A stretch of 64,000 nt of DNA from a virus, in IMG/VR virus record IMGVR_UViG_3300025108_000001, positions 35,251-99,250 of that record; one strand, written 5' to 3'. A program made the position numbers and the translations under genes. Below are positions 1 through 32,896 of the stretch, piece by piece; the stretch's first letter is position 1, and every line of letters begins with the position of its first letter. The notes under the pieces were generated by a model. The model did no database searches. It saw only the letters and a list, made by a program, of their open reading frames with translations, and was not told where the DNA came from.

Positions 1-610
1 ATCCTTCATCTGCCATTTCCTCTCTCTCTCTCCTACTGAGAGAATAATACCAATTTGCATATCTCTCTCTATCGTCTTCGTCATCATTTCCGCTAGGGTC
101 TTTAGATGACCCTTCTCCTATTTTTAAAGATTCTAAAACAGTATCAGTAAATACTTCTTCATCTTCTAAAACTCTAGGAATCCTAAATATCGGCTTATCT
201 CCCATTTCTGTATATGCACCTTCTGAATAGATAACAAAATACAGAATCTTCTCAATACCTTTGTATTTTACTTTTGTAGCGACACCGCCCTTTACATCGT
301 GTTCGTATAGGCCATCACCATCAGGATTATCTTCAAAGTTATATTTTTCATCTATTAATTTAGCAAACGTAATGTTTATCCCTAATTTAGACATTGCTTG
401 TGCAATATCTTCTAGTTCTTTACCTAGTTTTGTTTGATAAGTACTTTCATAGGGACTGGTTCGTTTTAAAGACTCATGTAATTTACGCGCAAATGGGATT
501 CTCATATTCATTGCTACTTCTTTATAATTATCAGTAAATCCGTCTTTGTCAATTCTAACGCCATTAGGTTTTTTAGTAAAATCTCTTTTTAATATATCTT
601 CCCAACTCAT
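1..610 (-). CDS. Hypothetical protein with N-terminal MSWEDILK tag (runs off the window edge; absent from ORF track)
   Basis: ATG at 610 (ccaactcat at 602-610) overlaps the stop of the upstream ORF; translates MSWEDILKRDFTKKPNGVRIDKDG... Confidence 0.75.
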   Translation of the reverse strand, partial: MSWEDILKRDFTKKPNGVRIDKDGFTDNYKEVAMNMRIPFARKLHESLKRTSPYESTYQTKLGKELEDIAQAMSKLGINITFAKLIDEKYNFEDNPDGDGLYEHDVKGGVATKVKYKGIEKILYFVIYSEGAYTEMGDKPIFRIPRVLEDEEVFTDTVLESLKIGEGSSKDPSGNDDEDDRERYANWYYSLSRREREEMADEG

Positions 611-933
611 TCTAAATCCCCCTTACTCTTTGGATAAACTAAGTCTCGTATTTGCCGATACAAAGTTTCGTAATCTTTTCTAAGTTCTGCTGCCGAAGAA
701 ACTATGTCTAAATTCTTTTCATCGAAACTCTCAAACTTTTTTTGTAGTCTTTTATCAGACTTAATTAAGTCTAATTTTTTCATCTCATCTAACAGGTCTG
801 AAAGATGAGTCATCTCTTGCCCCATGTATTCAGTAGGTTGAGTTTTTTGAAGAAGTTTCTTAAGTTTCTTTTTTTGTTTAGTATCAACTTTTTCTAAAAT
901 TGAAGATGATTTAAGTATTTCTTTCCAACTCAT
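607..933 (-). CDS. Hypothetical protein with MSWKEILK tag
   Basis: ATG at 933 after a GGTGG SD-like sequence; helical and Lys-rich. Confidence 0.8.
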   Translation of the reverse strand: MSWKEILKSSSILEKVDTKQKKKLKKLLQKTQPTEYMGQEMTHLSDLLDEMKKLDLIKSDKRLQKKFESFDEKNLDIVSSAAELRKDYETLYRQIRDLVYPKSKGDLE

Positions 934-982
934 ACTCAACCACCTTGTCTATCCGTTCTTATCTCTAGTTTATGAAGTTTCT

Positions 983-3121
983 TTATTTCAACTGATTACG
1001 GTCATTATACTCAGGGTTTTCATATTCAGATTCATCTGTGTCTGTAATATCATTCCCTTTAGGTGCATCTATGTTCTTACTAAAGAAGGCATCCACCTCT
1101 TTCTCAAGGGTTGTAATTTCGTTGCTAATCTTATTGAGGTCTCTTCTAACAGTATTTACGTTCCTTAAAGTAAGAACCGCCCATTTTTGTTTATCTAAAT
1201 CTGATGTCTGTCTTACTAATTTATTTAAAAAATTACTTTTCAATAACACATAATTTAGTATTTCAGAATCATTAATTTTAGAAGTATCATTTTCATCAAA
1301 CTTAGGCAAGGAAGTTTCGTTTTCTTTATTTAGTTTAAACTTCAATTTAAAATCTATCCATAACTTTTCAGTTCCTTTTCTTTCGTCTCTTAAACGAGTT
1401 AGTCTATTTCTTTCAATTACCCCCATATTCTCTTCCGTTCTTTCTCTAGAAGTATGCGGCTTTAAAAGATAACCGTATTCTACTGGTTGAATAACTTTCC
1501 TATCTACTAATTTGCTCTTACCATCTTTATCCTTTACACTTGCTAATGATGTTCCATCTTTATCCTTTACACTATTAAGTGGTAATTTAAATGAAGGCAA
1601 TCCTCCAATAGTTAATTTTTTCTCTAATTCTTTAAATATAGTATTATAAGTTTTTTTAAGTCTGCCTCTTGCTTTGGTTAGTTCAATTTGTCGTTCAAAA
1701 TCATCTGCAAGTTCACTACTTTCTTCTTGTTCTTCACTATCAGAACTTGATTCTGGAATATCAATACTAGTTAAATAATCTTTAAAATCCCTTACCGATA
1801 TTTCTTGTCCTTTAATAGAAAAAGTATTACTAAATAAAGAGCCTAAACTTACATCATCTTTCATGTAAGGCTTCAAATTATCAATGTCTTGTCTAGTTTG
1901 ATTATATTCTTTTACTACTGAATTTGGTAAAACTATACCTTTAGTTTCTAATATAATTTTTATAAAATGTAATATTTCGTGATACTCCTTTGCTTTCACT
2001 AGAGCAATGTCAAATTGTGAAATAGTGTTTTGTGTTTCGCCATCTAAATCCTTAGCCATTTCAGTTATTTCATTTTCTAACATAATAATTTTTTCCATTA
2101 TATCTAAAGCAATAGTTCTATAAAGAACCGAGTTTTGTCTGTTTAAAATTTTACTAATTTCTGTTTCGAGTTCACTATTATCTGCGGCAGGGTCATTAAC
2201 TACCTCTCCATCTTGACTAATAGTAGGGTTTCCCCCTCTAAAATACAAGTCCATTATTTGTTTAACATTATCAATTTTAGTAGGATAATCCATATTTAAA
2301 TAACCTATTAATTTAACACTGCTTAAATTAGTTTTAATATCATCATCAAAATCTATATCAAGGGTATCAAATATATCATTCATAATCTCTCTTGAGTTTT
2401 TATTATTATATATCTTAAATTGATTTAACCACCCGCCCACTTTTGAAAAGGACGCTCCCTCATCTACCAATAGATTACGCAACTCAGCAGCAATACGTTT
2501 TCTACCTTTAAAAAAATCATTAATTTCGCTAGATAAACTGTTAATTAATTTAACTTCATCTTCGTCATTTTGATTAACATTACCTCTTAATAGTATGTCT
2601 TTAAGTTGTGATGCTATTTCTTCGGTTTTGGTTGCTAGTGGTGAATCAAGATTTTTTTGTATTTTCGTAAAAGGGCTATCATCACTAAAAAGTAATTCAT
2701 GCACTTTAGGATATTTTTCCTCATTGTATTTACTTTTAAGGTTCTCTAAAGCAGTTTTTAAATTATTCAATGTAGTCAAATCATCACTTTGTCCGGTAGG
2801 AAGTAACTGAACTTCGGATACCTCTTCCAAATTCTTATTTTGGGTCTTAACTTTTCCACTTTTTCTTTTTACAGCATAGATTTCAGTTGTGCCGCTTGAC
2901 CCTTTAAAATTACCATCAAATATTATATCATGTTCAATAGGAGTATTAGTTGTTTCTAATTCCTTTTTTAATTTTAAAAACTCACGTTCTAGATTTGATA
3001 TGCTGTTAATAGAAACTGTATGAATTTCCTTTCTATTTTTAGATAGAACCTTTAATATCTTACTCCACGGATTTTTTCTTGCTTTCACAATATCTTTTTT
3101 TAAAATATCCATGAACGACAT
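983..3121 (-). CDS. Large helical hypothetical protein, possible internal virion protein (tag variants MSFMDILK and NPWSKILK)
   Basis: 712-aa ORF in the head gene block; no recognisable catalytic motifs. Confidence 0.7.
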   Translation of the reverse strand: MSFMDILKKDIVKARKNPWSKILKVLSKNRKEIHTVSINSISNLEREFLKLKKELETTNTPIEHDIIFDGNFKGSSGTTEIYAVKRKSGKVKTQNKNLEEVSEVQLLPTGQSDDLTTLNNLKTALENLKSKYNEEKYPKVHELLFSDDSPFTKIQKNLDSPLATKTEEIASQLKDILLRGNVNQNDEDEVKLINSLSSEINDFFKGRKRIAAELRNLLVDEGASFSKVGGWLNQFKIYNNKNSREIMNDIFDTLDIDFDDDIKTNLSSVKLIGYLNMDYPTKIDNVKQIMDLYFRGGNPTISQDGEVVNDPAADNSELETEISKILNRQNSVLYRTIALDIMEKIIMLENEITEMAKDLDGETQNTISQFDIALVKAKEYHEILHFIKIILETKGIVLPNSVVKEYNQTRQDIDNLKPYMKDDVSLGSLFSNTFSIKGQEISVRDFKDYLTSIDIPESSSDSEEQEESSELADDFERQIELTKARGRLKKTYNTIFKELEKKLTIGGLPSFKLPLNSVKDKDGTSLASVKDKDGKSKLVDRKVIQPVEYGYLLKPHTSRERTEENMGVIERNRLTRLRDERKGTEKLWIDFKLKFKLNKENETSLPKFDENDTSKINDSEILNYVLLKSNFLNKLVRQTSDLDKQKWAVLTLRNVNTVRRDLNKISNEITTLEKEVDAFFSKNIDAPKGNDITDTDESEYENPEYNDRNQLK

Positions 3122-3133
3122 AATCTAACTTCC

Positions 3134-3364
3134 TTAGAATGGTATATTTTCACTACGCATATTCTTTCTTTTAGGTGTTATCATAACATCAGGAATATTA
3201 CTAGGTGCATCGTCTGTTTTATTTTTTAACGTAGTGCTAGGGTCTACACCAACAACTGCATAGTCTCTACTAATGTTGACATTACTCCTTTGTTCCGCAC
3301 CTTCTTTAATTCTCGCTTGCTTCAATTCTCTTTCTAATTGTCTTACACTTTTTTCTTCACTCAT
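3134..3364 (-). CDS. Small hypothetical protein
   Basis: ATG at 3364 after GGTGA SD; MSEEKSVRQLE... Confidence 0.65.
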   Translation of the reverse strand: MSEEKSVRQLERELKQARIKEGAEQRSNVNISRDYAVVGVDPSTTLKNKTDDAPSNIPDVMITPKRKNMRSENIPF

Positions 3365-3369
3365 ATTAA

Positions 3370-3624
3370 TCACCTGTTTCTCTTTTCTTCATCTAGATTT
3401 TTCTTTGCTCTTGCTATGAAAGACTTATGCCCTCCAGTTCTTGGGGGAGTAATACCTGTAAATGAAGGACTAGCAGGGTTTTCAGTATACATTAAACAAC
3501 TTCCGTTATTACTAATGTTTACGTTAGGTAATGTGCATTTCATATTTTTATTATGTTTACATTTACTGGCTTTACAAACATCTATTCTGCATTCTGCTTC
3601 CTTGACTATATTTTTCCAACTCAT
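3370..3624 (-). CDS. Small Cys-rich protein with MSWKNIVK tag
   Basis: C-x3-C-x4-C-x6-C...C pattern; basic C-terminus. Confidence 0.7.
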   Translation of the reverse strand: MSWKNIVKEAECRIDVCKASKCKHNKNMKCTLPNVNISNNGSCLMYTENPASPSFTGITPPRTGGHKSFIARAKKNLDEEKRNR

Positions 3625-3625
3625 T

Positions 3626-3895
3626 TTAATCTCTCCTCATTTCATCTTGCATATCTTCTAAGTGTTTTTCATATTGATTTCTTTCTTCTTGGGTAGTCTC
3701 TTCTCTATCTTTCTGATTCATTACATTTCGTGGTTGTTCTTTTCCTGAAGAATTAACCATATCTTGTAACTCTCTTCGTTCTTTGGTTTTTTGCCTTTCA
3801 TTAGTAAAGGAAACCGGACTACCATTTACCCTTCTATTCAGACTTATTTTTTTTCTTGCCGTATTTTTTCTTTTAACTATCTCAAACCAACTCAT
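3626..3895 (-). CDS. Small charged protein with MSWFEIVK tag
   Basis: ATG at 3895; tightly packed in the operon. Confidence 0.7.
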   Translation of the reverse strand: MSWFEIVKRKNTARKKISLNRRVNGSPVSFTNERQKTKERRELQDMVNSSGKEQPRNVMNQKDREETTQEERNQYEKHLEDMQDEMRRD

Positions 3896-3896
3896 C

Positions 3897-4100
3897 TTAA
3901 TCACTTAATTCCTGTTTAACCCAATCGAACTCATCTTCAACATTATATTTACTAAGTTTGTTTCTTATGTTATTCCAACTTGCCCCAAAGTCTAATAGTT
4001 TTTTTGTGTATTCTAAAACACTTTTTTTTCTATTACCATAATCTATCCATTTTGGATATGAAAAAGATGGTTCAAACTTTAAGGCTTCAAACCATGTCAT
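3897..4100 (-). CDS. Small protein with MTWFEALK tag
   Basis: Abuts the portal stop codon. Confidence 0.7.
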   Translation of the reverse strand: MTWFEALKFEPSFSYPKWIDYGNRKKSVLEYTKKLLDFGASWNNIRNKLSKYNVEDEFDWVKQELSD

Positions 4101-5759
4101 TTAACCAACTCTCCTTTCTGTTCTTTTGTCATTATTTTGATTCCCTGCATCCTTTGGTAATCCTGAAAATCTTTTATCGGGAGCATTAAACATACTAGGC
4201 TTGTTTCTTTTTTTAGGTGGTTCTGATTTAACTTTTTCGGGAACACCCGCTTCGGCCATTGTCGGTTTATTTCCTTCCGCCATCATTTGACCTAACTGAC
4301 TAGCATCAATATCCGTACCTGCGTAAGGGTCAAGTTCAAACTCATCTTCTTTACCCTGTTGTTTTTCTTTTTCTTCCATAGGTTTATCATAAGTAAACCT
4401 GCCTTCTGAATCCATCTTTACTTCAAATCCTAAGTTCTTTATTGCCCCTGCAATATTAACTTCCATTTCTCTTAGTCTTAATTTAGCAATTTCATCTTCT
4501 TCTTCCGAAGGTGGAAGTTTTAATTCCCAATCTGTAATACCAAATTGATTAGTAATAAAGGGAAACACATAATTATTCCAAGTCGTTTGAGCCATCTCTA
4601 CTGCGCGATTAGTAACAAGTATTTGCATACCTTCGTTATTTAATCCACCGCCCGCAGAAGCGTCATTCATAAACACTTTACTTACACCATAAAAGGCAGA
4701 AATTCTATCTCGTAAATCATCTTTTACTGCAACATATTCCATTTCTTTTAGGCTATCCATGAATCTAACCCATTCAACAGAACCCTTTCCGGTTTCCGAT
4801 TCAATTCCCATTACCGGAATAAAGTGAGGGTCTTGTTCCATCTTTTCTTTAACACCTCGCCAAAACGATTTCATTGACTCCATATTTCTTGTCTGAACAG
4901 CCAACAATCCCTTCGGCATTCTTGCCTTAGTATATGATGAGTTAACATAATTATCCATTGCAATTAATGTAGTAACATTATTCCACAAAGTAAGAATAGG
5001 AGACATACCATATAATCTAGAAGGGGAATATTTGCTAAAGTGAACTACTTCCCCTTTGATGAAATATTGTTCTTCTCCGTTAACACGATTAACATAATGA
5101 ACAGGATACAATTCTGAATTACAGGTCTCACAAGTTTCACTCGGATGTTCATGTATTCTGTCTCTATGGCGCAGACAAACATAACCCCCTTTTCCTCTTT
5201 CGCCAAGTTCATTAGAATAAATGTGCATAGTAACAGGGTCGCCTCTAAACACTTCTTTTATTCGATGCATTCTAACCTTAGAATTATTGTCTAAATAATA
5301 TTCCTTTACTGTAACTAAGTAAGCATCATCCATTATATTCAAATCATCTTCTAATTCTTTCAATACATCTATGAACATTTGGTCTGCATTATTTACATAT
5401 CCTTCTAAAAAGTTTTTAGCATACACTAATTGTTTTGAATCCGGTTTAACTAAATCAGTAGATTCACAATCTGTGCATTGTAGGACGGGATTAGTATGTT
5501 CTTTTCCACAAGAATTACATTTTAATGCAAATTTTTCCTCCCACAAATACCCTCTTCTGAAAACCTCTTGTTTAAGTTGGGTAATACAAGTCCTAACAAT
5601 AGTTGACTGTTGCACTATATGATAAATAATAGGACTAGTTAACATATAGGAATTATCTCTTTCTTGTATTCCTAAATTGTAAACCGTTCTATCAGCAGGT
5701 TTAGGTGTAGTATTTCTAAATAGATTACTAAATGAAAATTTTCTTTTCTCTTCTACCAT
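4101..5759 (-). CDS. Portal protein (with inserted Zn-finger-like segments)
   Basis: 552 aa near the terminase; portal-like segments (VVHF..SPSRLYGMSPI, MDSLKEMEY..VKDDLRDRISAFYGVS); acidic, disordered C-terminus. Confidence 0.8.
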   Translation of the reverse strand: MVEEKRKFSFSNLFRNTTPKPADRTVYNLGIQERDNSYMLTSPIIYHIVQQSTIVRTCITQLKQEVFRRGYLWEEKFALKCNSCGKEHTNPVLQCTDCESTDLVKPDSKQLVYAKNFLEGYVNNADQMFIDVLKELEDDLNIMDDAYLVTVKEYYLDNNSKVRMHRIKEVFRGDPVTMHIYSNELGERGKGGYVCLRHRDRIHEHPSETCETCNSELYPVHYVNRVNGEEQYFIKGEVVHFSKYSPSRLYGMSPILTLWNNVTTLIAMDNYVNSSYTKARMPKGLLAVQTRNMESMKSFWRGVKEKMEQDPHFIPVMGIESETGKGSVEWVRFMDSLKEMEYVAVKDDLRDRISAFYGVSKVFMNDASAGGGLNNEGMQILVTNRAVEMAQTTWNNYVFPFITNQFGITDWELKLPPSEEEDEIAKLRLREMEVNIAGAIKNLGFEVKMDSEGRFTYDKPMEEKEKQQGKEDEFELDPYAGTDIDASQLGQMMAEGNKPTMAEAGVPEKVKSEPPKKRNKPSMFNAPDKRFSGLPKDAGNQNNDKRTERRVG

Positions 5760-7084: not shown

Positions 7085-7107
7085 ACTCTCACCTCCGCTA
7101 CTTGCCT

Positions 7108-8541: not shown

Positions 8542-8545
8542 AAAA

Positions 8546-11278: not shown

Positions 11279-11280
11279 AA

Positions 11281-13749
11281 TTACAGCCCCTTACTGTTTA
11301 ACCATTCTAATGGTTTGAAACCTTGAGTTTTACCTTTTGTTGTCTTTGGCTTAGAAATAGTTTTCTCTTTGGAAACAGTTACCATAGAAACTTTAATCTC
11401 ATCTAATATTTTTCGTTTGATGCTATCAAAACGTTTCAATAATACCTCTTTAATTTTTTTAACATCTGCCCTGTCCGTTTCACTTTCATCAATTTCTCTA
11501 TTTTTATTACTGTCTATTTCATCATACATTGTTCTTAATTCTACATTAGGAGGGTCTATCAATTCATCTATATTCCTACTAAATTTTAACAATCTTTGAT
11601 ATTCCTTATTTAATTTATATTGTTCTTCTTTAGGCAAGGAATCTAACGTTATAGGTTCGTCATTTTGATTATCTTGAGTTTTTTCTTCATTCATATATCT
11701 ATCTTTAAAGATAGCGATAGAATTAGTTTTACTATCATCCATAGAACCGTCCGTTCCACTAATATAGAAATTACCCACCGCACCTTCTGTTGTTTCAGGA
11801 ACAAAATCAACAGTCTTAGAGGGTATCATTGTTTCTAACATATCTTGGAAATCTTCGCGTTCCTCCAAAAAACGTTTCATTTCCCTTAGGCTCAATCTAG
11901 TAGAAATATTCTGTATAGTAGAATTAAATTCAGACTTTTTATAATCATCTATATTTTCAACTATATCTAAAAGTTTGGTTCTTGTATCGCTAGTCAATAA
12001 TGTATATTTAACATTTAAAGAAATGGTTGGCATATCTTCCATGTCTTTAAGCACATTCTCATAGGCGTTTAACAAATCAACTTCTTCATCAGTAGCATTA
12101 TCAGAAGTTCTAATCTCAGAAAGTCTAGTTAACCATGTTCGCCATCCCGTTACACTCCTTTGACCCTGTTTCACTACAATTTTACAAACACTCTTGAAAT
12201 TCGATAACAGTTGTTCCCATTGTGTGCTAGTAGTTTCAGAAAAACTATTTTTTGCTTCATTAAAATCACTTTGTCTTTGACCGTCACTTTCGATAATCAA
12301 CAACATTTTTAATTTATGTAAAAGAGTGCCTTCACTCACAGTTACTTTATTAGTTATTATCATATCATCTAATCTTCCGCCTACATTATCGGAATCATAC
12401 CTAAAGTAAATGGCTAAAGCACTTTGGAAGGCAGATACTTTTACATTTTCAAAGAAGTCTTTTTTAGTTCCGAATAAAAACTTAGGTCGGTCTGCTTTTC
12501 TAACATTATTCATTACATTTTCAAAATAAATTTTTGCTAACTTATCATCAATGTCAGAAATATCTATATTGTCATCTTTTTTATCTCTAATTATTTTTGC
12601 GCTCTTGTCCGTAGTAGTTTTAGGTTTCATTTTAAGAGAATTAAAATCTTTTTTTCCTAATATTTTTGCTAATTGAGTTCTTTCAATTTTTCCTTTATGG
12701 ATTTTTGAACCTGCTAATGAATCTATTTCCTCAATACTCAAAAAAGGAGCAAATTTAGTCAATCCTATTACTTCGGGAGATGAAGTTTTAATAGATATTT
12801 TTTTGTCATATAAATAAAACCCTTCTCGACTTTTTGTTTTCTGTTTTGGTTTATCTGCATCCTTTTCTTTTTGTGCGTCAATACTTCCTTTCTCATCTTC
12901 AGGTACATCTTCAGGTTCATCTTCAGTTTCAGTCTGATTATTACCCCTATATTCAACAGGTAGTAATACTGGTTTTTTAGTAAACCCGTTTAATATAGCC
13001 TTTACTTCTGTATCGAAAGTTTCTTCCGTAACACCTGCGGATAACGGCATAACTACTATTAAATCATCACTTAATGAATAGCCTAAAGTTTCAGGATTAT
13101 CTTTGTATTTATTAGTTAAGGTTTTTTGAATGTCTCTATCTTTGAAAAGTTTTGAAATATCTCTATTCCTTTGTTCCTTTTCATCCTTTGTTAACTTCTT
13201 GTTTTTACCTCTAGGTTTCAGAATAAGATTTTCATTTTTTATATATTCTACTGCATCAAAATCAACTTCACCTTTCATGTATCTAAGAACATCATCAAAA
13301 TCTCCTTGTTTTACTAACTTTGTCAACATCGGTTTAGTTCTATAAAAATTTTTTTCATAAATATCTAATAACATATCTAATCTATCTATATATTTTTCAG
13401 TATGAACCATTTGTGGAGACTTATAGTAAGGGTCTTCTCTTAATTGTTTAACGGATGGTTGCTTTCCATCTTTACCTTTAGGCCTAAACATATCTTTTCC
13501 TTCATGGATATTATCTATTGATATTGGAGGGTCTCTAAAAAAACTAGGGAAAGCAACATATCTCAGTTTTGACCTTAATTGGTTAGCGGTTCGCTTGAAG
13601 TGATTATCCCCATTTTCTTTCATATATTTTTCTAATAATGCTGTCAATTTCTTTTTGTCATCAGTAGTTAATAAGACATATATTTTTTTTACACCTTCGG
13701 TCATATTTTTTGACGGTCTAGGTGCTTTCAAAACAGATTGCCAACTCAT
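11281..13749 (-). CDS. Large hypothetical protein with MSWQSVLK tag (putative internal virion protein)
   Basis: Likely start is ATG at 13749 (ccaactcat) after GGAGAT. Confidence 0.7.
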   Translation of the reverse strand: MSWQSVLKAPRPSKNMTEGVKKIYVLLTTDDKKKLTALLEKYMKENGDNHFKRTANQLRSKLRYVAFPSFFRDPPISIDNIHEGKDMFRPKGKDGKQPSVKQLREDPYYKSPQMVHTEKYIDRLDMLLDIYEKNFYRTKPMLTKLVKQGDFDDVLRYMKGEVDFDAVEYIKNENLILKPRGKNKKLTKDEKEQRNRDISKLFKDRDIQKTLTNKYKDNPETLGYSLSDDLIVVMPLSAGVTEETFDTEVKAILNGFTKKPVLLPVEYRGNNQTETEDEPEDVPEDEKGSIDAQKEKDADKPKQKTKSREGFYLYDKKISIKTSSPEVIGLTKFAPFLSIEEIDSLAGSKIHKGKIERTQLAKILGKKDFNSLKMKPKTTTDKSAKIIRDKKDDNIDISDIDDKLAKIYFENVMNNVRKADRPKFLFGTKKDFFENVKVSAFQSALAIYFRYDSDNVGGRLDDMIITNKVTVSEGTLLHKLKMLLIIESDGQRQSDFNEAKNSFSETTSTQWEQLLSNFKSVCKIVVKQGQRSVTGWRTWLTRLSEIRTSDNATDEEVDLLNAYENVLKDMEDMPTISLNVKYTLLTSDTRTKLLDIVENIDDYKKSEFNSTIQNISTRLSLREMKRFLEEREDFQDMLETMIPSKTVDFVPETTEGAVGNFYISGTDGSMDDSKTNSIAIFKDRYMNEEKTQDNQNDEPITLDSLPKEEQYKLNKEYQRLLKFSRNIDELIDPPNVELRTMYDEIDSNKNREIDESETDRADVKKIKEVLLKRFDSIKRKILDEIKVSMVTVSKEKTISKPKTTKGKTQGFKPLEWLNSKGL

Positions 13750-13750
13750 C

Positions 13751-14056
13751 TTATTTATCTCCAACTTCATAGAACAGTGCTTCATTAGACTCGGCAGGGG
13801 TTAATCTTCCAAGAGGGTGTCTTCCGGCATCAAAACATTCCTTACAAGAATCTCCCAAATCCGAATTATCATTGTCCGGTTCATAATCCACAATCGTCCA
13901 CTTTTTTCCTAATAACTTCATACGACAAGAATCACAAATCTTCTTACCACATCCTCCTTCACAGGCTGTATGGTGAACCTCTTTCTCATTAGGACTAATA
14001 CCACAATAAGAGCAATCTTGTTCAGTTTCACTTTTTAATACATCTTGCCAATTCAT
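13751..14056 (-). CDS. Zn-finger protein with MNWQDVLK tag
   Basis: CSYC, C-x3-C, CDSC and CKEC pairs. Confidence 0.75.
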   Translation of the reverse strand: MNWQDVLKSETEQDCSYCGISPNEKEVHHTACEGGCGKKICDSCRMKLLGKKWTIVDYEPDNDNSDLGDSCKECFDAGRHPLGRLTPAESNEALFYEVGDK

Positions 14057-14068
14057 TGAACTCTCTCC

Positions 14069-14614
14069 TTAGACATCTTCTCTTCTGTCAAATGCCGTAT
14101 GTTGGTCTGCATTTCTTCTTTGCTTCCAACCACCTTCGACCCGTTTTGTTTTAGGTCGTCTTAAATTAGATAAAGCACTAGAGCCGCTAAGATTTCTTGT
14201 TAAAGGCGGTAATGCAAAACTAAATTTTTCATTTTTAATTGACCCTGCACTATATTCAATTGTAATAATTGCATCTTCTTCGGGATAAGCGTCATCGAAC
14301 AAAGTATTAGCCACATCCCCTCTATCTCGATTTTTTTGTGGCTTAACTACTACATCGTGAATTTTTATTCTAAGGCTACTTGGAAGACCCTTATATCCTC
14401 CATAATGTTGAATCACGCTAACTAATTGATTATCAGGAAATTGATTCCTTCTTAGTTTGTATAAATCACTTTTACTCATCATTAATATTCCGTTAGTTAA
14501 AGCACTTTCAATAGTAATCTTTAATTTGCCTTCACTCATTTCTTCAGGTGCGTGTTTCCTACCTAACATTCTTGCTTCTCTTAAATCAACTTTTAATATT
14601 TCTTTCCAACTCAT
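14069..14614 (-). CDS. Hypothetical protein with MSWKEILK tag
   Basis: ATG at 14614 overlaps the upstream stop (ATGA). Confidence 0.7.
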   Translation of the reverse strand: MSWKEILKVDLREARMLGRKHAPEEMSEGKLKITIESALTNGILMMSKSDLYKLRRNQFPDNQLVSVIQHYGGYKGLPSSLRIKIHDVVVKPQKNRDRGDVANTLFDDAYPEEDAIITIEYSAGSIKNEKFSFALPPLTRNLSGSSALSNLRRPKTKRVEGGWKQRRNADQHTAFDRREDV

Positions 14615-14997
14615 TGTATTAACCCCTCTAATTTCATTTTTTCCCAAAACCCTGATGTATGGGGTTGTATTTTAGACACGGTTGGTAATACATTCGTGTC
14701 TTCCAATGAATGCAATTCCTCAATAAACTCCTTAAGATATTCTCTTGCCTTGCCTTTATTTTGTATATTATCTTTAATAGTAAACACATGAATATCCCAA
14801 AAATAGTTACTTGGATTTTCGTCTTGATGATAAACTGCTTCACCCCTTGCCTTTTTATCATTAGATTCCCATGTTAATTTATCATCCCATTCAGGCGTTA
14901 AATCTGACAAGTATTGAAATTGTTTGTCCTTTCTTGGTTTATATGGATTACTACCCATATACCAAGTAGGAGATTTCAAAATATTCATCCAACTCAT
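14611..14997 (-). CDS. GNAT-like acetyltransferase with MSWMNILK tag
   Basis: IHVFTIKDNIQNKGKAREYL resembles GNAT motif A (Q/R-x-x-G-x-A); C-terminal GFWEKM. Confidence 0.55.
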   Translation of the reverse strand: MSWMNILKSPTWYMGSNPYKPRKDKQFQYLSDLTPEWDDKLTWESNDKKARGEAVYHQDENPSNYFWDIHVFTIKDNIQNKGKAREYLKEFIEELHSLEDTNVLPTVSKIQPHTSGFWEKMKLEGLIQ

Positions 14998-15012
14998 TGT
15001 AATCTCTCCTTC

Positions 15013-15321
15013 TCAATCTTTTCTTTCTAAAACAATATACCAATCAAAAACTGTTCCATCTTCTTTTGTGGCGGCAGGTTCTAATTGTTGAATAGAAAAT
15101 CCGCCATTTTGTTCTAAGAAATCCCTCAAATTACTCGTTCTTATATCTGATGACAGAACATCTTCCTTACTTGAATAAACTTGTGCTAATACTTCCTTAT
15201 CATCAACAATATAACTTCTAAGCCCACTGTAACTTGTATTTGGAAAAGCAACTTTACTTTTAAAATCCTTTCTTTTTCCATGACTTATAAAATCATTTTT
15301 CAATATATTTTTCCAACTCAT
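15013..15321 (-). CDS. Hypothetical protein with MSWKNILK tag
   Basis: ORF track; ATGA overlap with the upstream gene. Confidence 0.7.
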   Translation of the reverse strand: MSWKNILKNDFISHGKRKDFKSKVAFPNTSYSGLRSYIVDDKEVLAQVYSSKEDVLSSDIRTSNLRDFLEQNGGFSIQQLEPAATKEDGTVFDWYIVLERKD

Positions 15322-15974: not shown

Positions 15975-15978
15975 CTAA

Positions 15979-16230
15979 TCACCCCATTGTCTCTTTCAAT
16001 TTTTCTTTAAGTTCTTCTAATGTTTTTTCCGCATCAAGAATAGTAGGTCTTTGTATTTGTTCAATGATGTTTCTTGCATATTCTATAAGCAAACCTGTTT
16101 CTTTATTCATTTTAATAGCGGCTTCTTCAATATCTTCATACAACTTTTCTAGTAGTTTTTCCGTCTTTTCAATTTGGTCTAGATAAAATGAATATTCTTC
16201 TAATCCCTTTAATACAGAAAACCAACTCAT
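15979..16230 (-). CDS. Coiled-coil protein with MSWFSVLK tag
   Basis: ORF track; GGGAGA SD. Confidence 0.7.
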   Translation of the reverse strand: MSWFSVLKGLEEYSFYLDQIEKTEKLLEKLYEDIEEAAIKMNKETGLLIEYARNIIEQIQRPTILDAEKTLEELKEKLKETMG

Positions 16231-16247
16231 CTTAATTTCTCCCTCAT

Positions 16248-16430
16248 TTATAGTAATTTTTTAAGTTCAGTAATTAAAACCTTAACATCTTCTTTAGTAT
16301 AGGGTTCAGGATTTGCTAATTTTTCTGGACTAGGATAGCCTAAAATATTGGAATTAAGTACTTCCATAACTTCGTCCGTTATATCATCTCCCCAATCAAA
16401 ATCTTCTTTTATTATTCCTTTCCAACTCAT
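16248..16430 (-). CDS. Small acidic protein with MSWKGIIK tag
   Basis: Likely start is ATG at 16430 after GGAGAG. Confidence 0.7.
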   Translation of the reverse strand: MSWKGIIKEDFDWGDDITDEVMEVLNSNILGYPSPEKLANPEPYTKEDVKVLITELKKLL

Positions 16431-16431
16431 C

Positions 16432-16509
16432 TTAATACTCTCCACAATAACTACACATACAACAAGAATAATTATCCTCATCTATTTCCATATTACAACA
16501 TTCTAACAT
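16432..16509 (-). CDS. 25-aa Cys-rich microprotein (MLECCNMEIDEDNYSCCMCSYCGEY)
   Basis: Exactly fills the gap between two genes; GAGGGA SD; 6 Cys. Confidence 0.45.
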   Translation of the reverse strand: MLECCNMEIDEDNYSCCMCSYCGEY

Positions 16510-17708
16510 ATCATTTCCCTCTTTAAAATATCTTTCCAATTATCTGTATTGGAATTTATTGATTTATTAGTTTGTTCAAAACCTTCTTGTTGTAAATTAT
16601 TTTCAGTTGTTTCTTCAACCGGAAAGTTAGCAATCTGAATAGTATTGAAATTTCTCTTGTTTTTATTTTCCCAACGCATTCTTTTGTTGTCTAGTAAAAT
16701 AGTTACAATTTCATTTATTCTCCATCTGCTTATTTTAAACCAAGCAGATTTTATTTCATTGGGAATATTTATTCCAATCATTTCTTTAATTCTATCAGAA
16801 TCATTCCCTCTAGGTATTTGTATTGCTTTTCCTTCAATTTCCTTTTGACACCTTTCCCATTGAAAATTACCATTAGGTAGAGGTGTTTTCATCCATTTCT
16901 TTATTATTCTTTTAACACCACTAATCTCCATTGCTTTCCTAGCCCAACCAGTTTGAGTTTTATCTCCCAACTGTATTGGTGTATCTTTGCTTAAACCAAG
17001 TGGTTGTTCTAATGCTTCTATTCCGGCATTGACTATTTGAAGTAAACTATTAGTTAATGTATAGCCCACTACATCATTTGGATTTTCAGCATATAACATA
17101 GACCAAAAGGGAGGCTTTGCCAAATTGGGGTCAATATTATACCAAGCCGAATCAACAGCAGGTGAAGGTTTTAGTGGAGGGTCGCCCTTTTTACGATTTT
17201 TTATTTTATATTCTATTCTATCTTCATAATTAGGAGTTCTAAAATGACCGAAAATTTTTCGTCTCCCTGTTATCTCACCTGTTTCATCATCTATTTCTTT
17301 ATCTAGAAAAGGAATACTTCTAGGGTTTGAATCATTTGCACTTGAATTGATATTGTTCATATATTGCTGTAATTGTTTCAAATCAGTAATATCATCAACA
17401 TCAATATCATTGTTAAATATTCTTTTTAACATAGCATTTATTTTGTTCCCGCCTTCGGGCGAAACTGCACCTGCGAAACCCTTCCTTCTTCCAATTAGAC
17501 CTTGTTTCAGAAACATACCGTATAGAGAAAGTTGAGGTTGGAGCATTCCTATTTTATTTCCTTTAACTGCCTTAGTTTCTGTAACCCATAATTGAAACAT
17601 TTCACTTAGTAATTTAACATTAACATTGCCTTCAAAATTATAAGTTCCGGTAGGAGTAGTTGCACTAATCGTTGTTCCTTCTTCTTTTTTTATTGTTTTT
17701 TCTACCAC
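16503..17708 (-). CDS. Hypothetical protein with a C-terminal copy of the tag (NWKDILK)
   Basis: GTG at 17708 after AAGGAGGT is a better start than the TTG in the ORF track. Confidence 0.7.
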   Translation of the reverse strand: MVEKTIKKEEGTTISATTPTGTYNFEGNVNVKLLSEMFQLWVTETKAVKGNKIGMLQPQLSLYGMFLKQGLIGRRKGFAGAVSPEGGNKINAMLKRIFNNDIDVDDITDLKQLQQYMNNINSSANDSNPRSIPFLDKEIDDETGEITGRRKIFGHFRTPNYEDRIEYKIKNRKKGDPPLKPSPAVDSAWYNIDPNLAKPPFWSMLYAENPNDVVGYTLTNSLLQIVNAGIEALEQPLGLSKDTPIQLGDKTQTGWARKAMEISGVKRIIKKWMKTPLPNGNFQWERCQKEIEGKAIQIPRGNDSDRIKEMIGINIPNEIKSAWFKISRWRINEIVTILLDNKRMRWENKNKRNFNTIQIANFPVEETTENNLQQEGFEQTNKSINSNTDNWKDILKREMIC

Positions 17709-17835
17709 GTTTTTTACCTCCTTTTGATGAAATTGATTTGTTATTAAATAAAGATGAAGTTCCATTATTACTAGTAGTAACTGCCCCTGCCATTCGTAGT
17801 ATAGTAAACCATTTACTGTTAGGGATAGTTGCCAC
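17665..17835 (-). CDS. 56-aa basic protein with tag variant (SKWFTILR); absent from ORF track
   Basis: Translates VATIPNSKWFTILRMAGAVTTSNNGTSSLFNNKSISSKGGKKRGRKNNKKRRRNND. Confidence 0.6.
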   Translation of the reverse strand: MATIPNSKWFTILRMAGAVTTSNNGTSSLFNNKSISSKGGKKRGRKNNKKRRRNND

Positions 17836-17961
17836 TTGTATAAGCGCAACAACAATTAGACTATGAATGTTTCACTAATTACTATTGTTTTTTATTTTTT
17901 CTGATTGCAACCCACACCCAAAAATCATTTGATAAAGTCCAAAAAAATTTCTCTATTCTAT

Positions 17962-18294
17962 TCAAGAACCTTTTCTCCACTTCTCATTTTTCTTTTCCTT
18001 AGTTTTACTAGGACTCCACTTTACTTTATCAGACCAATATGCGGCAGACATTTTACCACGTTTAATATTCTTAGCGTGTCTAGATTTGAAGGCCTTTCTT
18101 TGACCTGCTGTTTGATTTGTTTTTACTCCCTTCTGTCCGAACCTAATAGTTTTAACTTTATCACCATCTTTTACTACAACAATGTGAGATTTAGTTTTGT
18201 GCTTAATTCTCTTGGGCTTACTAAAGCCACTAACACCTGCTCTTTTCAACGCAGGGTGTTTACCCTTCTTTTTTAGAACTTCAAACCATGTCAT
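17962..18294 (-). CDS. Basic protein of a widespread phage family (IRFGQKG...FKSRH...SAAYWS), with MTWFEVLK tag
   Basis: Motifs resemble the DUF5754-like basic viral proteins. Confidence 0.7.
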   Translation of the reverse strand: MTWFEVLKKKGKHPALKRAGVSGFSKPKRIKHKTKSHIVVVKDGDKVKTIRFGQKGVKTNQTAGQRKAFKSRHAKNIKRGKMSAAYWSDKVKWSPSKTKEKKNEKWRKGS

Positions 18295-18662
18295 TAATTC
18301 CACAACTCTTCTTCGGGGTATAGTTCCATTGCTTCTTCTATATCTTCTCTAAAATTTTCAGCGACTTCTAACCAATCAACATCTGATATTGAATCTCCAA
18401 TTTCATCTCTATCATTAACGGGAGATAATAATTCATCCATAAAACCTTTATTTTGAGACATCATTTCGGGCAACTCTTTCGCTATTGCATCTAAAATATC
18501 TTCAATAACTTCTTTTCTAGACCAACCCCAACCAAGATATCCTTTTACTTTTTGTTTGATTAATTGTATTATTGGAAAATAATTCGCTTCCTCATTCATA
18601 ACCCACAAATCTGCACTTCTAGTTGCAGTTTTAGTGTCTTTCAAAATATCTTTCCAACTCAT
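18294..18662 (-). CDS. Acidic hypothetical protein with MSWKDILK tag
   Basis: ATG at 18662. Confidence 0.7.
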   Translation of the reverse strand: MSWKDILKDTKTATRSADLWVMNEEANYFPIIQLIKQKVKGYLGWGWSRKEVIEDILDAIAKELPEMMSQNKGFMDELLSPVNDRDEIGDSISDVDWLEVAENFREDIEEAMELYPEEELWN

Positions 18663-18667
18663 ATTAA

Positions 18668-18943
18668 TCACTTCTGCGAGAACTTCCTTCCGGTAGGAAC
18701 GTGTTGTTTACCCTTTTTAGTTCCTTCTCTTTTTTTCCTATCTTGATACTTCAATCTAGACTTAGAGGTTTTCTTGTAAGTTCCCTTTGGCATATACCTA
18801 CCCTTAGTTTTAGACTTAGGAGTTTTACCTTTTTCTTTGGCACTATGTTGCTCGGCGCTACCCCACTCTTCATTAGTCCAATTCTGTAAATCTCTTTGAG
18901 TTTTGGCCTTAGCCTTTAACATATCAAACCAACTACTAATCAC
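18668..18943 (-). CDS. Basic protein resembling the DUF5872 C-terminal half, with SWFDMLK tag
   Basis: QRDLQNWTNEEW...RYMPK...KKREG..KGKQHV; start at GTG 18943 or ATT 18940. Confidence 0.65.
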   Translation of the reverse strand: MISSWFDMLKAKAKTQRDLQNWTNEEWGSAEQHSAKEKGKTPKSKTKGRYMPKGTYKKTSKSRLKYQDRKKREGTKKGKQHVPTGRKFSQK

Positions 18944-19139
18944 GATAACCACCACCTGCTTTTTTGTAAGCGGCTGCAAGCATTTGTGCTTTTCTTGCAG
19001 ACCATTGACCTGCCGCACCACCTTTACTACCTGCTTTAATTCTTTGAAATTGTTTTTTTCTCATCGTGGGTTTAGTATAATTACCTGCTGAATTAACGGT
19101 AGATTTCTTTTTCTTCTTAAGAACTTCAAACCAACTCAT
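18936..19139 (-). CDS. Basic protein resembling the DUF5872 N-terminal half, with MSWFEVLK tag
   Basis: NYTKP..R...IKAGSKGGAAGQWSARKAQMLAAAYKKAGGGY. Confidence 0.7.
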   Translation of the reverse strand: MSWFEVLKKKKKSTVNSAGNYTKPTMRKKQFQRIKAGSKGGAAGQWSARKAQMLAAAYKKAGGGYRD

Positions 19140-19635
19140 AAGCATCACCCCAATATTTAGTTATAGAGTTACCACTCCTTGATTGTTTTCTAGGTTTTCC
19201 AGTTATCTTATCAAAATACCCTGAATTATAATTTTTCCCTAAGTAATATTTAAGTTCGTTTCCAGTAGGAATAGTGCTAGCACCTGTATTAAAATTATTT
19301 TTTGACTCACTCATTTTATCATACATTAACTCTAGTATCTCTCTAGGAGTTTTCGGCTCTGTAACTTCTAACATAACTTCTTCTATCAACTTCTTAGCAT
19401 GAATAGACATAGACCTAGAACCTTTCTTTTCTATTTTAGAATTTAAAAATTTAGGAAACGCTCCTGTTCTTTTAACACCTTTCTTTTCTCTTGCCTTTCT
19501 AGTACAACGTCCACATAACTCTATTCCTTTTGACGATGCAGAAGGAGTAAGTTTGGTATTGCACACCGGATTAACACAAACCTTTCTAGGTTTAGTGTTA
19601 ACAGGTGTAGCCTTAATTGTGTCAAACCAACTCAT
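19126..19635 (-). CDS. Zn-finger plus wHTH-like protein with MSWFDTIK tag
   Basis: CVNPVC...CGRC, followed by a PKTPREILELM helix. Confidence 0.65.
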   Translation of the reverse strand: MSWFDTIKATPVNTKPRKVCVNPVCNTKLTPSASSKGIELCGRCTRKAREKKGVKRTGAFPKFLNSKIEKKGSRSMSIHAKKLIEEVMLEVTEPKTPREILELMYDKMSESKNNFNTGASTIPTGNELKYYLGKNYNSGYFDKITGKPRKQSRSGNSITKYWGDAYELV

Positions 19636-19646
19636 TGTCTGCCTCT

Positions 19647-19940
19647 TTATTCTATTCTTTCAGAAGGTATGTTAAACTCAAAATTATCCACTTCTCCCAA
19701 TGTTGTCAAATTTGTTTCTAATTTACCTAAACCGATTTGTATATCTAATAACAGTTCCCGAATTGCATCATGGTCAAATCTATTTTCTTCAGTTTTAGGT
19801 GTATCATAAAGCGCCTTTCTTGTTGCCTCAATACCATCCACTAAAACATTAAAATTTTTCATCATCTCTTTCATACTATCTGCATCTATTTTTTGCTTTA
19901 TTATAGTAGTTTCTTTCTTAAGCATATTTTCCCAACTAAT
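19647..19940 (-). CDS. Hypothetical protein with (M)SWENMLK tag, probable ATT start
   Basis: GGGGTG-tttt-ATT AGT TGG at 19940. Confidence 0.65.
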   Translation of the reverse strand: MSWENMLKKETTIIKQKIDADSMKEMMKNFNVLVDGIEATRKALYDTPKTEENRFDHDAIRELLLDIQIGLGKLETNLTTLGEVDNFEFNIPSERIE

Positions 19941-20137
19941 AAAACACCCCCCCAGTAAACACATTACCTTCTAAAAGACTCAAGTTTAATATTATTCCGT
20001 TTCCTACTATTTTTGTGGGTAATAAAATGTTTTACCTAACGAAAAGTGAAAAATGTGGTGGAATTTTTTTACCACTAGCGCGCGTTTTTTTTTTAATTTA
20101 CTACCATAACCGTAATAAGGATACTATTATTAAAAAA

Positions 20138-20380
20138 TTAAGGAGCATAAAACGGCTTAACTCTTCTATTACAAGTAGTGCAATGTTTATCATTCCATTC
20201 TCCTGATGCGAAATTTAAATGACCCTTACAATAAGGACAGTAAGGGCGTTTTCTTTTACTAACGCTATCAAGAGCAGGTTTTTTATGTGTTTTTGTATTC
20301 TTTTTATTGTTATTACTATTAAAGTGGCCTAGATTCTTAATTATAGTGAACCACAAGCCGTCAGATACTACCATTGTCAT
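20138..20380 (-). CDS. Zn-ribbon protein with tag variant (LWFTIIK)
   Basis: CPYC...CTTC; first gene of the minus-strand block. Confidence 0.6.
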   Translation of the reverse strand: MTMVVSDGLWFTIIKNLGHFNSNNNKKNTKTHKKPALDSVSKRKRPYCPYCKGHLNFASGEWNDKHCTTCNRRVKPFYAP

Positions 20381-29809: not shown

Positions 29810-29956
29810 ATCTGCTTTAGTTCTAGTCTATCTTATCATAGATATAAAATCTATCGGTAATTACTATATGGTATTCACTACCGTAAAGTATTCCTAGTAA
29901 CAGGAGACGTTATCGGACGGGTGCAAAGCCCGTTAACAAAATAATGTGGGATAAAA

Positions 29957-31822: not shown

Positions 31823-31905
31823 ATGAAAATATGTAATAAATGTAAAAAAGAATTAGGAGACCTTCGGGTTAAAGATGGCGATTGTTGTAGAATAATGGTG
31901 ATGAA

Positions 31906-32895: not shown

Positions 32896-32896
32896 A

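Follow-up and report, generated by a model that had tools for sequence, protein, structure and literature searches.

The 64,000-nucleotide window analysed here belongs to a complete 99-kb magrovirus genome (G000, 99,250 bp). Magroviruses, which are abundant marine archaeal viruses, are tailed viruses of marine group II archaea. Between positions 587 and 19,635 of the window, 16 minus-strand ORFs begin with M-[S/T/N]-W-x-x-[I/V]-[L/I/V]-K. Written as nucleotides (ATG-NNN-TGG-N6-RYN-NTN-ARR), this pattern occurs 16 times in the window against a mean of 0.18 (maximum 2) in 100 dinucleotide shuffles of it, and every match lies on the minus strand, at the start of an ORF and behind a GGAG-type ribosome-binding site. 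The shared tag reported in the original prediction is therefore real; of the 21 copies listed there, 16 are exact and the other five (at 3121, 17835, 18943, 19940 and 20380) are variants. Two copies had been missed: a tagged gene immediately ahead of the window (L083:14409-14729, minus strand) and a C-terminal copy of the motif at 16503-16541. Across the whole 99,250-bp genome, no tag copy at an ORF start was found outside the set of tagged genes.

All genes described here are on the minus strand. At the left edge of the window lies a tagged ORF (2..610, tag starting at 610) that encodes 224 aa in the genome, its 3' end falling beyond the window start, and that has homologues in 0 of 80 related loci. 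It is followed by the sole core tagged gene (607..933, 108 aa, 75 of 80 loci) and by a 712-aa ORF (983..3121) with a variant tag, F replacing W, and another tag-like stretch slightly further in (residues 19-25); searches of Pfam, PHROG and PDB gave no match to the latter protein, which has a homologue in one of the 80 loci. Three small tagged genes come next: a Cys-rich protein of 84 aa matching DUF1540 (3370..3624, E 3.6e-6), a basic protein of 89 aa with the exact tag pattern (3626..3895), and a protein of 67 aa whose tag reads M-T-W...A-L-K (3897..4100). The portal gene (4101..5759; phrog_18178, E 7e-71) is untagged and core, being found in 80 of 80 related loci, and its product is ~31% identical to the portals of haloarchaeal HCTV-5 and HVTV-1. 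The large terminase subunit (TerL, 7108..8541) is likewise untagged and core, and an untagged 910-aa ORF without an assigned function (8546..11278) is conserved in 56 of 80 loci.

Upstream of these, the largest tagged protein (822 aa, 11281..13749) is hypervariable between genomes and found no match in Pfam, PDB or Atlas searches. Six ORFs that fit the tag pattern follow: 13751..14056 (101 aa, 8 Cys), 14069..14614 (181 aa), 14611..14997 (128 aa), 15013..15321 (102 aa), 15979..16230 (83 aa) and 16248..16430 (60 aa). The C-terminal copy mentioned above ends an ORF of 420-450 aa (16503..17855), its W sitting 11 residues short of the C-terminus, the same spacing that the scaffold shows. The start of this ORF is overlapped in another frame by a 56-aa ORF (17665..17835) carrying the weakest variant, K-W-F-T-I-L-R, and the status of this small ORF is uncertain because of the overlap. 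Beyond it are tagged proteins that are very basic (17962..18294, 110 aa; 18936..19139, 67 aa) or acidic (18294..18662, 122 aa), a variant-tag ORF with a probable GTG start that adds two residues ahead of S-W (18668..18943), and a tagged protein of 169 aa (19126..19635). The ORF at 19647..19940 carries an exact tag if its start codon is the ATT at 19940, which has a G-rich ribosome-binding site 4 nt upstream. Last is the first gene of the leftward operon (20138..20380), which encodes a Zn-ribbon-like tail and the variant W-F-T-I-I-K after a TTG or an upstream ATG. As predicted, no tag is present on the portal, TerL or any plus-strand gene. The name head block is only partly apt, because the majority of tagged genes sit upstream of TerL, where the structural operon starts. 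The very start of an operon is often home to early genes.

The tag is a trait of the lineage. Twelve related genomes of 91-103 kb, searched whole, contain 8-18 tags each, clustered on one strand, and one locus (L304) has the tag on as many as 20 ORFs in a run of 25. After the first 10 residues had been trimmed off, 335 tagged ORFs from 81 genomes fell into 121 BLAST clusters, in keeping with the earlier description of the bodies as unrelated, although a few paralogous subfamilies exist, some with longer shared leaders. The bodies are soluble, mainly ORFan and mutually unrelated: a transmembrane-like segment is present in 1 of 113 tagged cluster representatives, compared with 7 of 95 untagged ORFs, and 6 of the 113 match Pfam. 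Cys-rich and Zn-ribbon-like bodies do occur among them, as had been claimed, whereas the GNAT-like enzyme has no Pfam support. The proteins span 56-822 aa and very basic, acidic and Cys-rich compositions. Leaving aside the core family at 607..933, each tagged gene has homologues in 0-14 of 80 loci, against 51-80 of 80 for the untagged neighbours. Tagged genes are thus the accessory, fast-turnover genes of the head module, and their untagged neighbours are its core.

The tag persists across clades whose proteases are just 46% identical. A third, sister clade (clade 3) has the variant [FM]-x-x-A-W-x-h-L-K, which stands at N-termini and also between the domains of long ORFs; this arrangement suggests one payload that can take either form interchangeably, as separate tagged genes or as a processed polyprotein. 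Beyond the viruses, the motif occurs at chance level, as single matches only, in 596 Gb of cellular genomes, and it is absent from the replication genes; it is thus not equally common in early genes or host proteins.

Is the peptide itself what is conserved? A shared start could be a relic of gene origin without a common role, new ORFs having arisen by capture or duplication downstream of a conserved ribosome-binding site and of initial codons that promote recombination or the start of translation. The ribosome-binding sites before tagged ORFs are indeed strong and uniform, some paralogous subfamilies share longer leaders, 97% of the Ser residues at codon 2 are encoded by AGT, and S, N and T lie one step from each other. 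Untagged genes show the same AGT bias, however, a sign that A is generally preferred at +4, and the synonymous sites of codons 6-8 vary freely while the amino acids are kept: Leu7 is encoded by all six codons and Lys8 by both. Judged from this codon usage, selection on the tag acts on amino acids and not on nucleotides. With the motif also found at C-termini and, in clade 3, within ORFs, and conserved between clades with such divergent proteases, a mere relic is the least probable of the explanations considered here.

The peptide lies outside the folded body and is short and flexible. Comparison of the tagged ORFs shows that conservation ends at residue 8, with none beyond; in the family at 607..933, indels follow directly after the tag, and in the AF2 model of the window's member residues 1-10 have low confidence and lie outside a helical body at 18-99. 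W3 is invariant in this family, whereas I-L-K is degenerate in some orthologues and the I-L-K part is missing in many; two orthologues are fused behind an N-terminus without the tag. Among tags in general the Lys is nearly invariant, with Arg replacing it in ~5%.

The two halves of the tag resemble different parts of the virus's own head-assembly proteins. A 6-mer profile built from tag residues 1-6 was run over the entire proteome (30,275 positions); the two genuine internal sites that scored best were the helices at the C-termini of the protease-scaffold and a 76-aa head protein. The helix of the protease-scaffold carries a conserved M-[ST]-W-x-[DE]-[IV]-H, retained down to ~30% identity, and the 76-aa protein is a small coiled-coil ending in the same motif. 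A 5-mer profile of tag residues 4-8, trained without G000, found its best proteome match where the protease domain ends (residues 169-173) and its third-best non-tag match at residues 17-21, directly ahead of that domain's first strand. The protease has the assemblin/T4 gp21 fold together with the HK97-type Pfam S78 signature, and aromatic-x-I-L-K is invariant at both ends of its domain in 69 homologues. In an AF2 model of the protease-scaffold, residues 1-20 form a disordered leader, 168-173 the last strand and the C-terminal motif a helix. In three clades, the N-arm of the capsid protein has a variable Gly-rich linker followed by a conserved h-[LI]-K-[AS]. The aromatic-x-I-L-K motifs may nevertheless be structural and not cut sites: they are kept across very distant S78 protease-scaffold fusions, far beyond the lineage, and the second copy is a beta-strand of the fold.

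A likeness shared with the scaffold C-terminus and a small coiled-coil head protein would also suit assembly helpers or core fillers, docked by the tag to the scaffold or protease core and then degraded and expelled at maturation; like the scaffold, they would not be delivered to the next host. The only core tagged protein is a scaffold-like helical bundle, and the protease-type motifs would make degradation possible. Helpers are normally conserved, yet the tagged genes are the most variable of the module (0-14 of 80 loci, 121 clusters), and sizes of 56-822 aa with such varied compositions are too diverse for a shared structural role. I regard this explanation as unlikely.

Alternatively, the tag may be a mere processing or stability signal, a propeptide or N-terminal degron read by a viral or host protease, timing late accessory proteins in the cytoplasm without any packaging. 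That its end is the motif of the protease's own domain boundaries and of the capsid N-arm fits such a role, as do the clade 3 copies between domains of long ORFs. It leaves the invariant Trp and the likeness to the scaffold helix without explanation, and at the C-terminal copies cutting would take off just 5-10 residues, which better fits a docking peptide. Prohead proteases of this fold act inside procapsids, as in T4 and HK97, and therefore their substrates need to be brought there. A signal of this kind without packaging thus seems quite improbable.

The partner might instead be a host hub protein or the virus's ubiquitin-like module (Ubl, ThiF-type E1, JAB); in the latter case W-x-x-[IV] would bind Ubl in the manner of an Atg8/LIR core, or Lys8 would serve as acceptor. 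The core of an LIR is W-x-x-[ILV], the Lys of the tag is nearly invariant, and a ThiF E1 is present in 13 of 13 canonical-tag genomes tested, including G000, and in 0 of 4 clade-3 genomes. This distribution amounts to a single evolutionary contrast, however, since 23 G000 genes have the identical phyletic pattern, and clade 3, which lacks ThiF, still has a tag of this kind in variant form. The replacement of Lys by Arg in 5% of tags and its loss from many core-family orthologues also speak against such a partner, the closest proteome matches of the motif are head-assembly proteins, and cellular genomes contain the motif no more often than chance predicts. Such a partner is very doubtful.

The best explanation is that M-[STN]-W-x-x-[IV]-[LIV]-K is a portable terminal address tag, most likely a label for capsid loading because it resembles parts of the virus's own protease-scaffold. 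From the sequence comparisons, I give a probability of about 0.5 to a tag that, like the capsid-targeting sequence (CTS) of T4, would dock cargo in the procapsid and probably be clipped after the Lys. The mechanism would start from what the comparisons show, an amino-acid-selected flexible tag carried by many soluble accessory proteins of the head module that turn over fast and are unrelated to one another. The W-centred first half would dock each protein to the assembling procapsid, on the same receptor as that used by the C-terminal helix of the protease-scaffold and the 76-aa protein; this receptor is probably either the scaffold core or the interior surface of the capsid protein. Because the same motif brackets the protease domain and recurs in the capsid N-arm, [IV]-[LI]-K may be the site of the HK97-family (S78) prohead protease, and a cut after Lys would remove the tag and free the cargo inside the head. 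By analogy only, the freed proteins might accompany the DNA out of the head and be active at an early stage in the next host; this would account for their rapid turnover.

Several observations count against this explanation. About 20 cargo species, some above 800 aa, are a large load for a 99-kb head; removal of Met1 before Ser2 would make the likeness to the scaffold's internal Met fortuitous; and the I-L-K loss in the core family and the Arg for Lys, the operon-start position of most tagged genes, and the perhaps structural protease motif weigh on the same side, as does clade 3, whose tag is much less like the scaffold's C-terminal helix. What stands firmly from the original interpretation is a portable protein-level tag tied to head assembly, since it marks the head module's accessory genes and resembles the scaffold helix and the protease and capsid motifs; loading, cleavage at Lys and injection I infer.

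Known systems offer partial parallels. As far as the account of T4 in PMC7411985 goes, internal proteins carry an N-terminal capsid-targeting sequence that is cut off by gp21; it is found on IPI-III and Alt and is removed by this prohead protease (Mullaney and Black 1996, in PMC7411985). In both viruses a short N-terminal peptide sits on unrelated proteins encoded near head genes and ends in a motif recurring in the processing context of the protease itself, the protease has an assemblin-like fold, and the cargo is expected to leave together with the DNA. The two peptides have no sequence likeness, however, the magrovirus tag having 8 residues against 10-20, and the proposed P1 residue is Lys where T4 has Glu; the magrovirus protease is of family S78 and not of the gp21 family, and where T4 has four, a magrovirus genome has about 20 tagged proteins, the body families numbering more than 120. 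The magrovirus host is archaeal, copies are also C-terminal, and the tag is known from sequence. In the giant phages phiKZ and SPN3US, the prohead protease cuts many head-internal proteins at one motif that they share, and a targeting role has been proposed for their propeptides (PMC7411985, PMC10052503). Processing of ejection proteins at one motif would be shared, but those propeptides run from tens to more than 100 residues, without a uniform 8-residue tag, and the genomes exceed 200 kb. Encapsulin cargo-loading peptides also send diverse cargo inside an HK97-fold shell by a short terminal peptide, although encapsulins work without portal, protease or DNA and their peptides are usually C-terminal, of another consensus, and retained.

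The polyvalent proteins of phages and conjugative elements, reportedly described by Iyer et al. in 2017, likewise form a payload of varying effector domains; it is encoded by head-module genes and presumed to be packaged. Giant multi-domain ORFs occupy the equivalent place in clade 3 and HVTV-1, with tag copies between domains in clade 3, whereas in G000 the payload is split among separate small genes with one tag each. Proteases or scaffolds of the herpesvirus and HK97 type are targeted by a C-terminal tail, a role that Duda et al. in 2013 are said to have assigned to the C-terminus of the HK97 protease (gp4). The magrovirus protein shares with herpesvirus pUL26 and HK97 gp4 the order of protease domain, linker, coiled-coil scaffold and short conserved C-terminal helix, and its conserved h-x-K-[SA] motifs sit at the positions of the herpesvirus release and maturation sites. 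Encapsidation of the HK97 protease is the subject under which Duda et al. 2013 is cited in PMC12749128. The magrovirus tag looks like an N-terminal copy of such a C-terminal helix; in those systems the tail is on the protease or scaffold only, whereas in magroviruses its look-alike is on many accessory proteins.

The minus strand holds every gene from window position 1 to about 20,400, and in a six-frame scan many of its ORFs open with the tag M-[S/T/N]-W-x-x-[I/V/A/T]-[L/I/V]-K, with a GGAG-type ribosome-binding site in front of every copy. When the tag is written as a degenerate DNA pattern, the window contains 16 matches, every one of them on the minus strand and within 587-19,635, against a mean of 0.18 and never more than two in shuffled sequence. 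The original prediction of a tag shared by unrelated proteins therefore describes something real, and larger than first described; of the copies it named, 16 are exact and five others are variants, one of them weak. The variant on a 712-aa protein has F for W and a second copy 18 residues downstream, the one at 18943 has a probable GTG start and two extra residues, and that at 20353-20380 reads W-F-T-I-I-K. Reading the ATT at 19938-19940 as the probable start, with a G-rich ribosome-binding site 4 nt upstream, yields an exact tag. The weak copy opens a 56-aa ORF (17665-17855) that overlaps, in another frame, the 5' end of a 420-450-aa ORF, and a C-terminal copy of the motif is found in the protein at 16503-17855; the two ORFs could be one frameshifted gene with the motif at both ends. 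TTG, GTG or ATT starts are seemingly used for tagged genes in several relatives. One extra tagged gene lies immediately before the window, and the tag is at none of the remaining ORF starts of the whole 99,250-bp genome, of which the window makes up positions 35251-99250.

The genome carries direct terminal repeats, and its size, gene content and relatives, which are marine viral contigs of 90-107 kb, fit a magrovirus. Its portal, a match to phrog_18178, shares ~31% identity with those of the haloarchaeal viruses HCTV-5 and HVTV-1, which its capsid protein and protease also match. After the portal come TerL, a fusion of an S78 prohead protease to a coiled-coil scaffold (P0002; minus strand, 10308-11519 of the portal-region locus L083) and the major capsid protein (P0003). 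On the plus strand lie genes for a family-B DNA polymerase split into two ORFs (window 45193-46512 and 46853-47779, with a 114-aa ORF between), RFC, a replicative ligase (36821-38365), a UvrD helicase and a PD-(D/E)XK nuclease. At each end the terminally repetitive genome has one giant ORF, of 2392 aa at window 56678-63856 and of >2500 aa at genome 1-7618; both probably encode fibre or adhesin proteins. In the surface ocean magroviruses are among the most abundant viruses, and most of their genes have no known function; to my knowledge, neither they nor their hosts have been cultured. I found no mention of a shared N-terminal peptide in the magrovirus literature searched, from which the assignment of marine group II archaea as host is taken (PMC5434244).

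Within the block of 21 kb that begins at the operon start and reaches the protease gene, untagged genes are core, with homologues in 51-80 of 80 related loci (portal, TerL, a 910-aa protein, an HNH-like protein, a ligase-domain protein, two small proteins, protease and capsid protein), whereas tagged genes have homologues in 0-14, a comparison limited to genes no farther than 10 kb from the portal, where the loci end. The exception is one tagged 108-aa family, present in 75 loci. Only 6 of 113 tagged cluster representatives have a Pfam match, and among the tagged proteins of this genome there is no significant one but a single DUF1540; the large tagged proteins drew nothing from Pfam, PHROGs, a PDB sequence search or the ESM Atlas. 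The bodies range in composition from very basic through acidic to Cys-rich, and a TM-like segment occurs in 1 of 113 representatives versus 7 of 95 untagged ORFs. The core 108-aa family has an invariant W3, a degenerate I-L-K in part of its orthologues, and indels located immediately after the tag; its AF2 model places residues 1-10, at low confidence, outside the helical body. The indels and the model together indicate that the tag is a separate, flexible terminal module.

The ligase-domain protein (873 aa) lies directly upstream of the protease on the minus strand (L083:11560-14181; genome 31560-34181, just before the window). It contains an ATP-dependent DNA ligase domain with a K-Y-D-G-x-R motif (PF01068, E 1e-28), the canonical replicative enzyme being a second ligase in this genome, and it may be a virion-carried ligase. 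I did not count the W-K-x-T-V-K at its residues 44-49 as a tag because it sits in a generally conserved helical region.

Across the 80 related loci (portal identity 69-94%), tagged ORFs lie on the portal strand only. Together with this genome they provide 335 tagged ORFs of 40-822 aa from 81 genomes, which fall into 121 unrelated BLAST clusters once the first ten residues are removed. Some paralogous subfamilies exist, but the number of clusters and the spread of lengths rule out a single diverged paralogous family. Among 278 distinct N-termini, M at position 1 is followed by S (163), T (37), N (31) or K (17), then W, F/E/K/Q, D/E/N/S, I/V/T, L/I/V and finally K (263) or R (15), and conservation stops at this eighth residue. 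The selection is at the protein level: all six codons occur for Leu7, three for Ile6 and both for Lys8, in a genome with a strong preference for TTA and AAA. Ser2 is AGT in 97%, and since untagged genes also favour AGT at Ser2 (10/15) and A at +4 (56/100), this bias is a general start-context preference. A nucleotide-level signal or recombination cassette is ruled out on both counts.

Scanning related viral genomes with the motif, as originally proposed, recovered tags on head-module accessory genes. In clade 1, comprising this virus and its nearest relatives, ten related genomes searched whole hold 8-18 copies each, clustered and on one strand. Clade 2, whose protease is 46% identical, has 9-13 per record (two 94-kb records searched whole, one of them estimated complete). 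A collection scan with one tag pattern returned, among the matches listed, mostly magrovirus-like contigs with 2-16 tags per locus. At one relative's locus (L304) 20 of 25 consecutive ORFs are tagged; positions 2201-7969 there hold six adjoining tagged paralogues, one of 806 aa, with a common longer leader in which the tag is followed by N-I-Q-I-S-S-Q-R-T. A further magrovirus-like record (IMGVR_UViG_3300021958_000021), at 184,733 bp about double the usual length, has eight tags in 12 kb and may represent either an assembly of two genome copies (a dimer) or a relative of larger size. The same pattern gave 99 scattered single matches in 596 Gb of bacterial and archaeal genomes, approximately the number expected by chance, so the motif is not equally common in host proteins and a host or general cellular N-terminal motif is ruled out. 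Of 290 strong matches in clade 1, 242 are N-terminal and most others lie behind non-ATG starts or at C-termini, which fits a terminal docking peptide.

Clade 3 (protease 39% identical, GC 44-54%) showed no tag with the fixed pattern, which requires W at codon 3. However, an unbiased comparison of N-termini revealed a variant, M-x-x-[AP]-F-[DE]-x-A-W-x-[VIL]-[LI]-K, and overturned the view that this clade is tag-free. In two whole clade-3 genomes about eight ORFs start with the variant and a few more copies lie within ORFs or at C-termini; the A-W-x-h-h-K core has 3-11 matches, on one strand, in five clade-3 records and 0-1 in controls. The internal copies fall between domains of long ORFs as G-E-P-M-D-x-x-W-R-L-L-K, and in these and the C-terminal copies Trp takes the position of Phe in the protease's own F-x-I-L-K. 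Between portal and protease clade 3 has a giant ORF of 1840-2085 aa with a ligase domain homologous to that of the separate 873-aa protein, so split tagged genes and multi-domain proteins share one genomic niche. A second shared N-terminus, M-I-D-T-D-K-Y-E-G-H, opens seven tandem ORFs in one clade-3 genome (G011 ~90,500-92,600; L258) and two in another (G012 ~14,900-15,300; L248), and represents a paralogous family or else another tag. The bodies of tagged proteins have zero BLAST homologues in clade-3 loci or HVTV-1, and a comparable tag was not found in HVTV-1.

What might such a peptide dock to? With mis-called starts set aside, the best two matches to a profile of tag residues 1-6, among 30,275 non-initial positions of the virus's proteome, are the C-termini of a 76-aa head-module protein and of the protease-scaffold. 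Some 11-14 residues before the end, both carry M-[AT]-W-[ED]-D-[IV]-H-x-L-V. The scaffold motif is kept in 69 of 69 close homologues, in protease-scaffold representatives down to ~30% identity and also in a small clade-3 protein, and in P0002, as modelled by AF2, it lies within the terminal helix after a long coiled coil. The 76-aa protein is a core coiled-coil protein on the minus strand (L083:14732-14962; genome 34732-34962) that ends M-x-W-E-D-I-H like the scaffold, has a clade-3 counterpart at L185:2593-2913, and may be a second small scaffold or a docking protein. Sought as a co-variation test, relatives of a scaffold variant with Tyr for Trp (P0139) yielded zero loci. The tag would probably derive from the scaffold's own predicted docking helix.

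The other end of the tag resembles parts of the protease. A profile of residues 4-8, trained without this genome, has its best match in the whole proteome at protease residues 169-173, the last strand of the protease domain, and its third-best non-tag match at residues 17-21, within the disordered leader and directly ahead of the first strand; both motifs are invariant across homologues although the leader varies. The scaffold has a conserved [ET]-I-x-K-[SA] about 35 residues before its C-terminus, and the capsid protein keeps h-[LI]-K-[AS] at residues 24-34, after a variable Gly-rich linker, in all three clades. The fusion is laid out as protease, cut-like motif, scaffold, cut-like motif and predicted capsid-binding tail. 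As a prohead protease-scaffold of the S78 family it is well founded: the protein and its relatives carry PF04586, the PHROG annotation is head maturation protease, the catalytic pair H68 and S126 is invariant in 59 diverse homologues, and the AF2 model matches assemblin/gp21 folds. The tag would end in a predicted protease site. However, even very distant S78 fusions keep the aromatic-x-I-L-K motifs, which may be structural, and this makes the cleavage step uncertain; from these motifs, I consider clipping of the tag by the head protease somewhat short of an even prospect.

The tag also contains the [WFY]-x-x-[LIV] core of LIR/AIM-type motifs, and could be read as a Ubl-binding motif tied to the virus's own ThiF/Ubl module. 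The ThiF-type E1 (33157-33786; PF00899, E 1.5e-18) lies in a cluster at window 29606-34601 with a 67-aa Ubl candidate, a 457-aa protein and a 190-aa JAB candidate. Clades 1 and 2 conserve E1 and its neighbours and clade 3 lacks them, the module being present in this genome and 12 of 12 other canonical-tag genomes tested and in 0 of 4 clade-3 genomes. Yet 23 genes of this virus share that phyletic pattern, clade 3 has variant tags without ThiF, and Arg replaces Lys in 5% of tags, all of which weakens a Ubl-binding role. Two in-frame TGA codons lie within the E1 match of one relative (G005). The cluster also encodes a homologue of archaeal transcription factor B (31906-32895; TFIIB Zn-ribbon and cyclin repeat), which could redirect host RNA polymerase.

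At this point, the best-supported mechanism is a capsid-targeting tag that, by analogy with the capsid-targeting sequence (CTS) of T4 internal proteins, would mark a hypervariable payload. In its full form, to which I give a probability of roughly one in three, each capsid would be loaded with ~10-20 rapidly exchangeable effectors by an 8-residue tag copied from the scaffold's own capsid-docking helix and clipped by the protease, and sister clades would carry the same payload in polyproteins cut at internal tags. This model predicts tag-reporter loading, protease cutting after Lys and dependence on W3, all testable without virus culture. If the tag does mark virion-delivered proteins, hundreds of ORFan families would become one functional class, packaged early effectors, the genes likeliest to counter the defences of the host. 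In the full form of the model, archaeal viruses would gain their first known cargo-addressing code, one that offers a ready handle for putting foreign proteins inside such a capsid. How single tagged genes relate to polyproteins that contain internal tags is relevant to the evolution of polyvalent proteins.

Among known systems, encapsulin cargo-loading peptides are retained and belong to compartments with no portal, terminase or protease, whereas this genome has a portal, TerL, a protease and tail genes. The protease-scaffold layout parallels the herpesvirus assemblin-scaffold, with a protease-domain fold common to both. The trait shared with the T4 CTS is one short N-terminal peptide on otherwise unrelated proteins of one virus, here 16 exact copies and five variants in the window. 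As for a cleavage motif of the T4 kind, the tag-end motif is found again at either end of the protease domain as well as in the capsid N-arm; such motifs are family-wide and may be structural. The tag sequence is unrelated to that of T4, and the magrovirus protease belongs to PF04586 (S78, HK97 family) and resembles gp21 in fold only; the tag system is therefore an analogue of the T4 CTS and not a member of it. The tag is new for archaeal viruses and unusual in scale, and if the capsid-targeting reading is true, it would be an archaeal counterpart of the T4 signal on a far larger scale.
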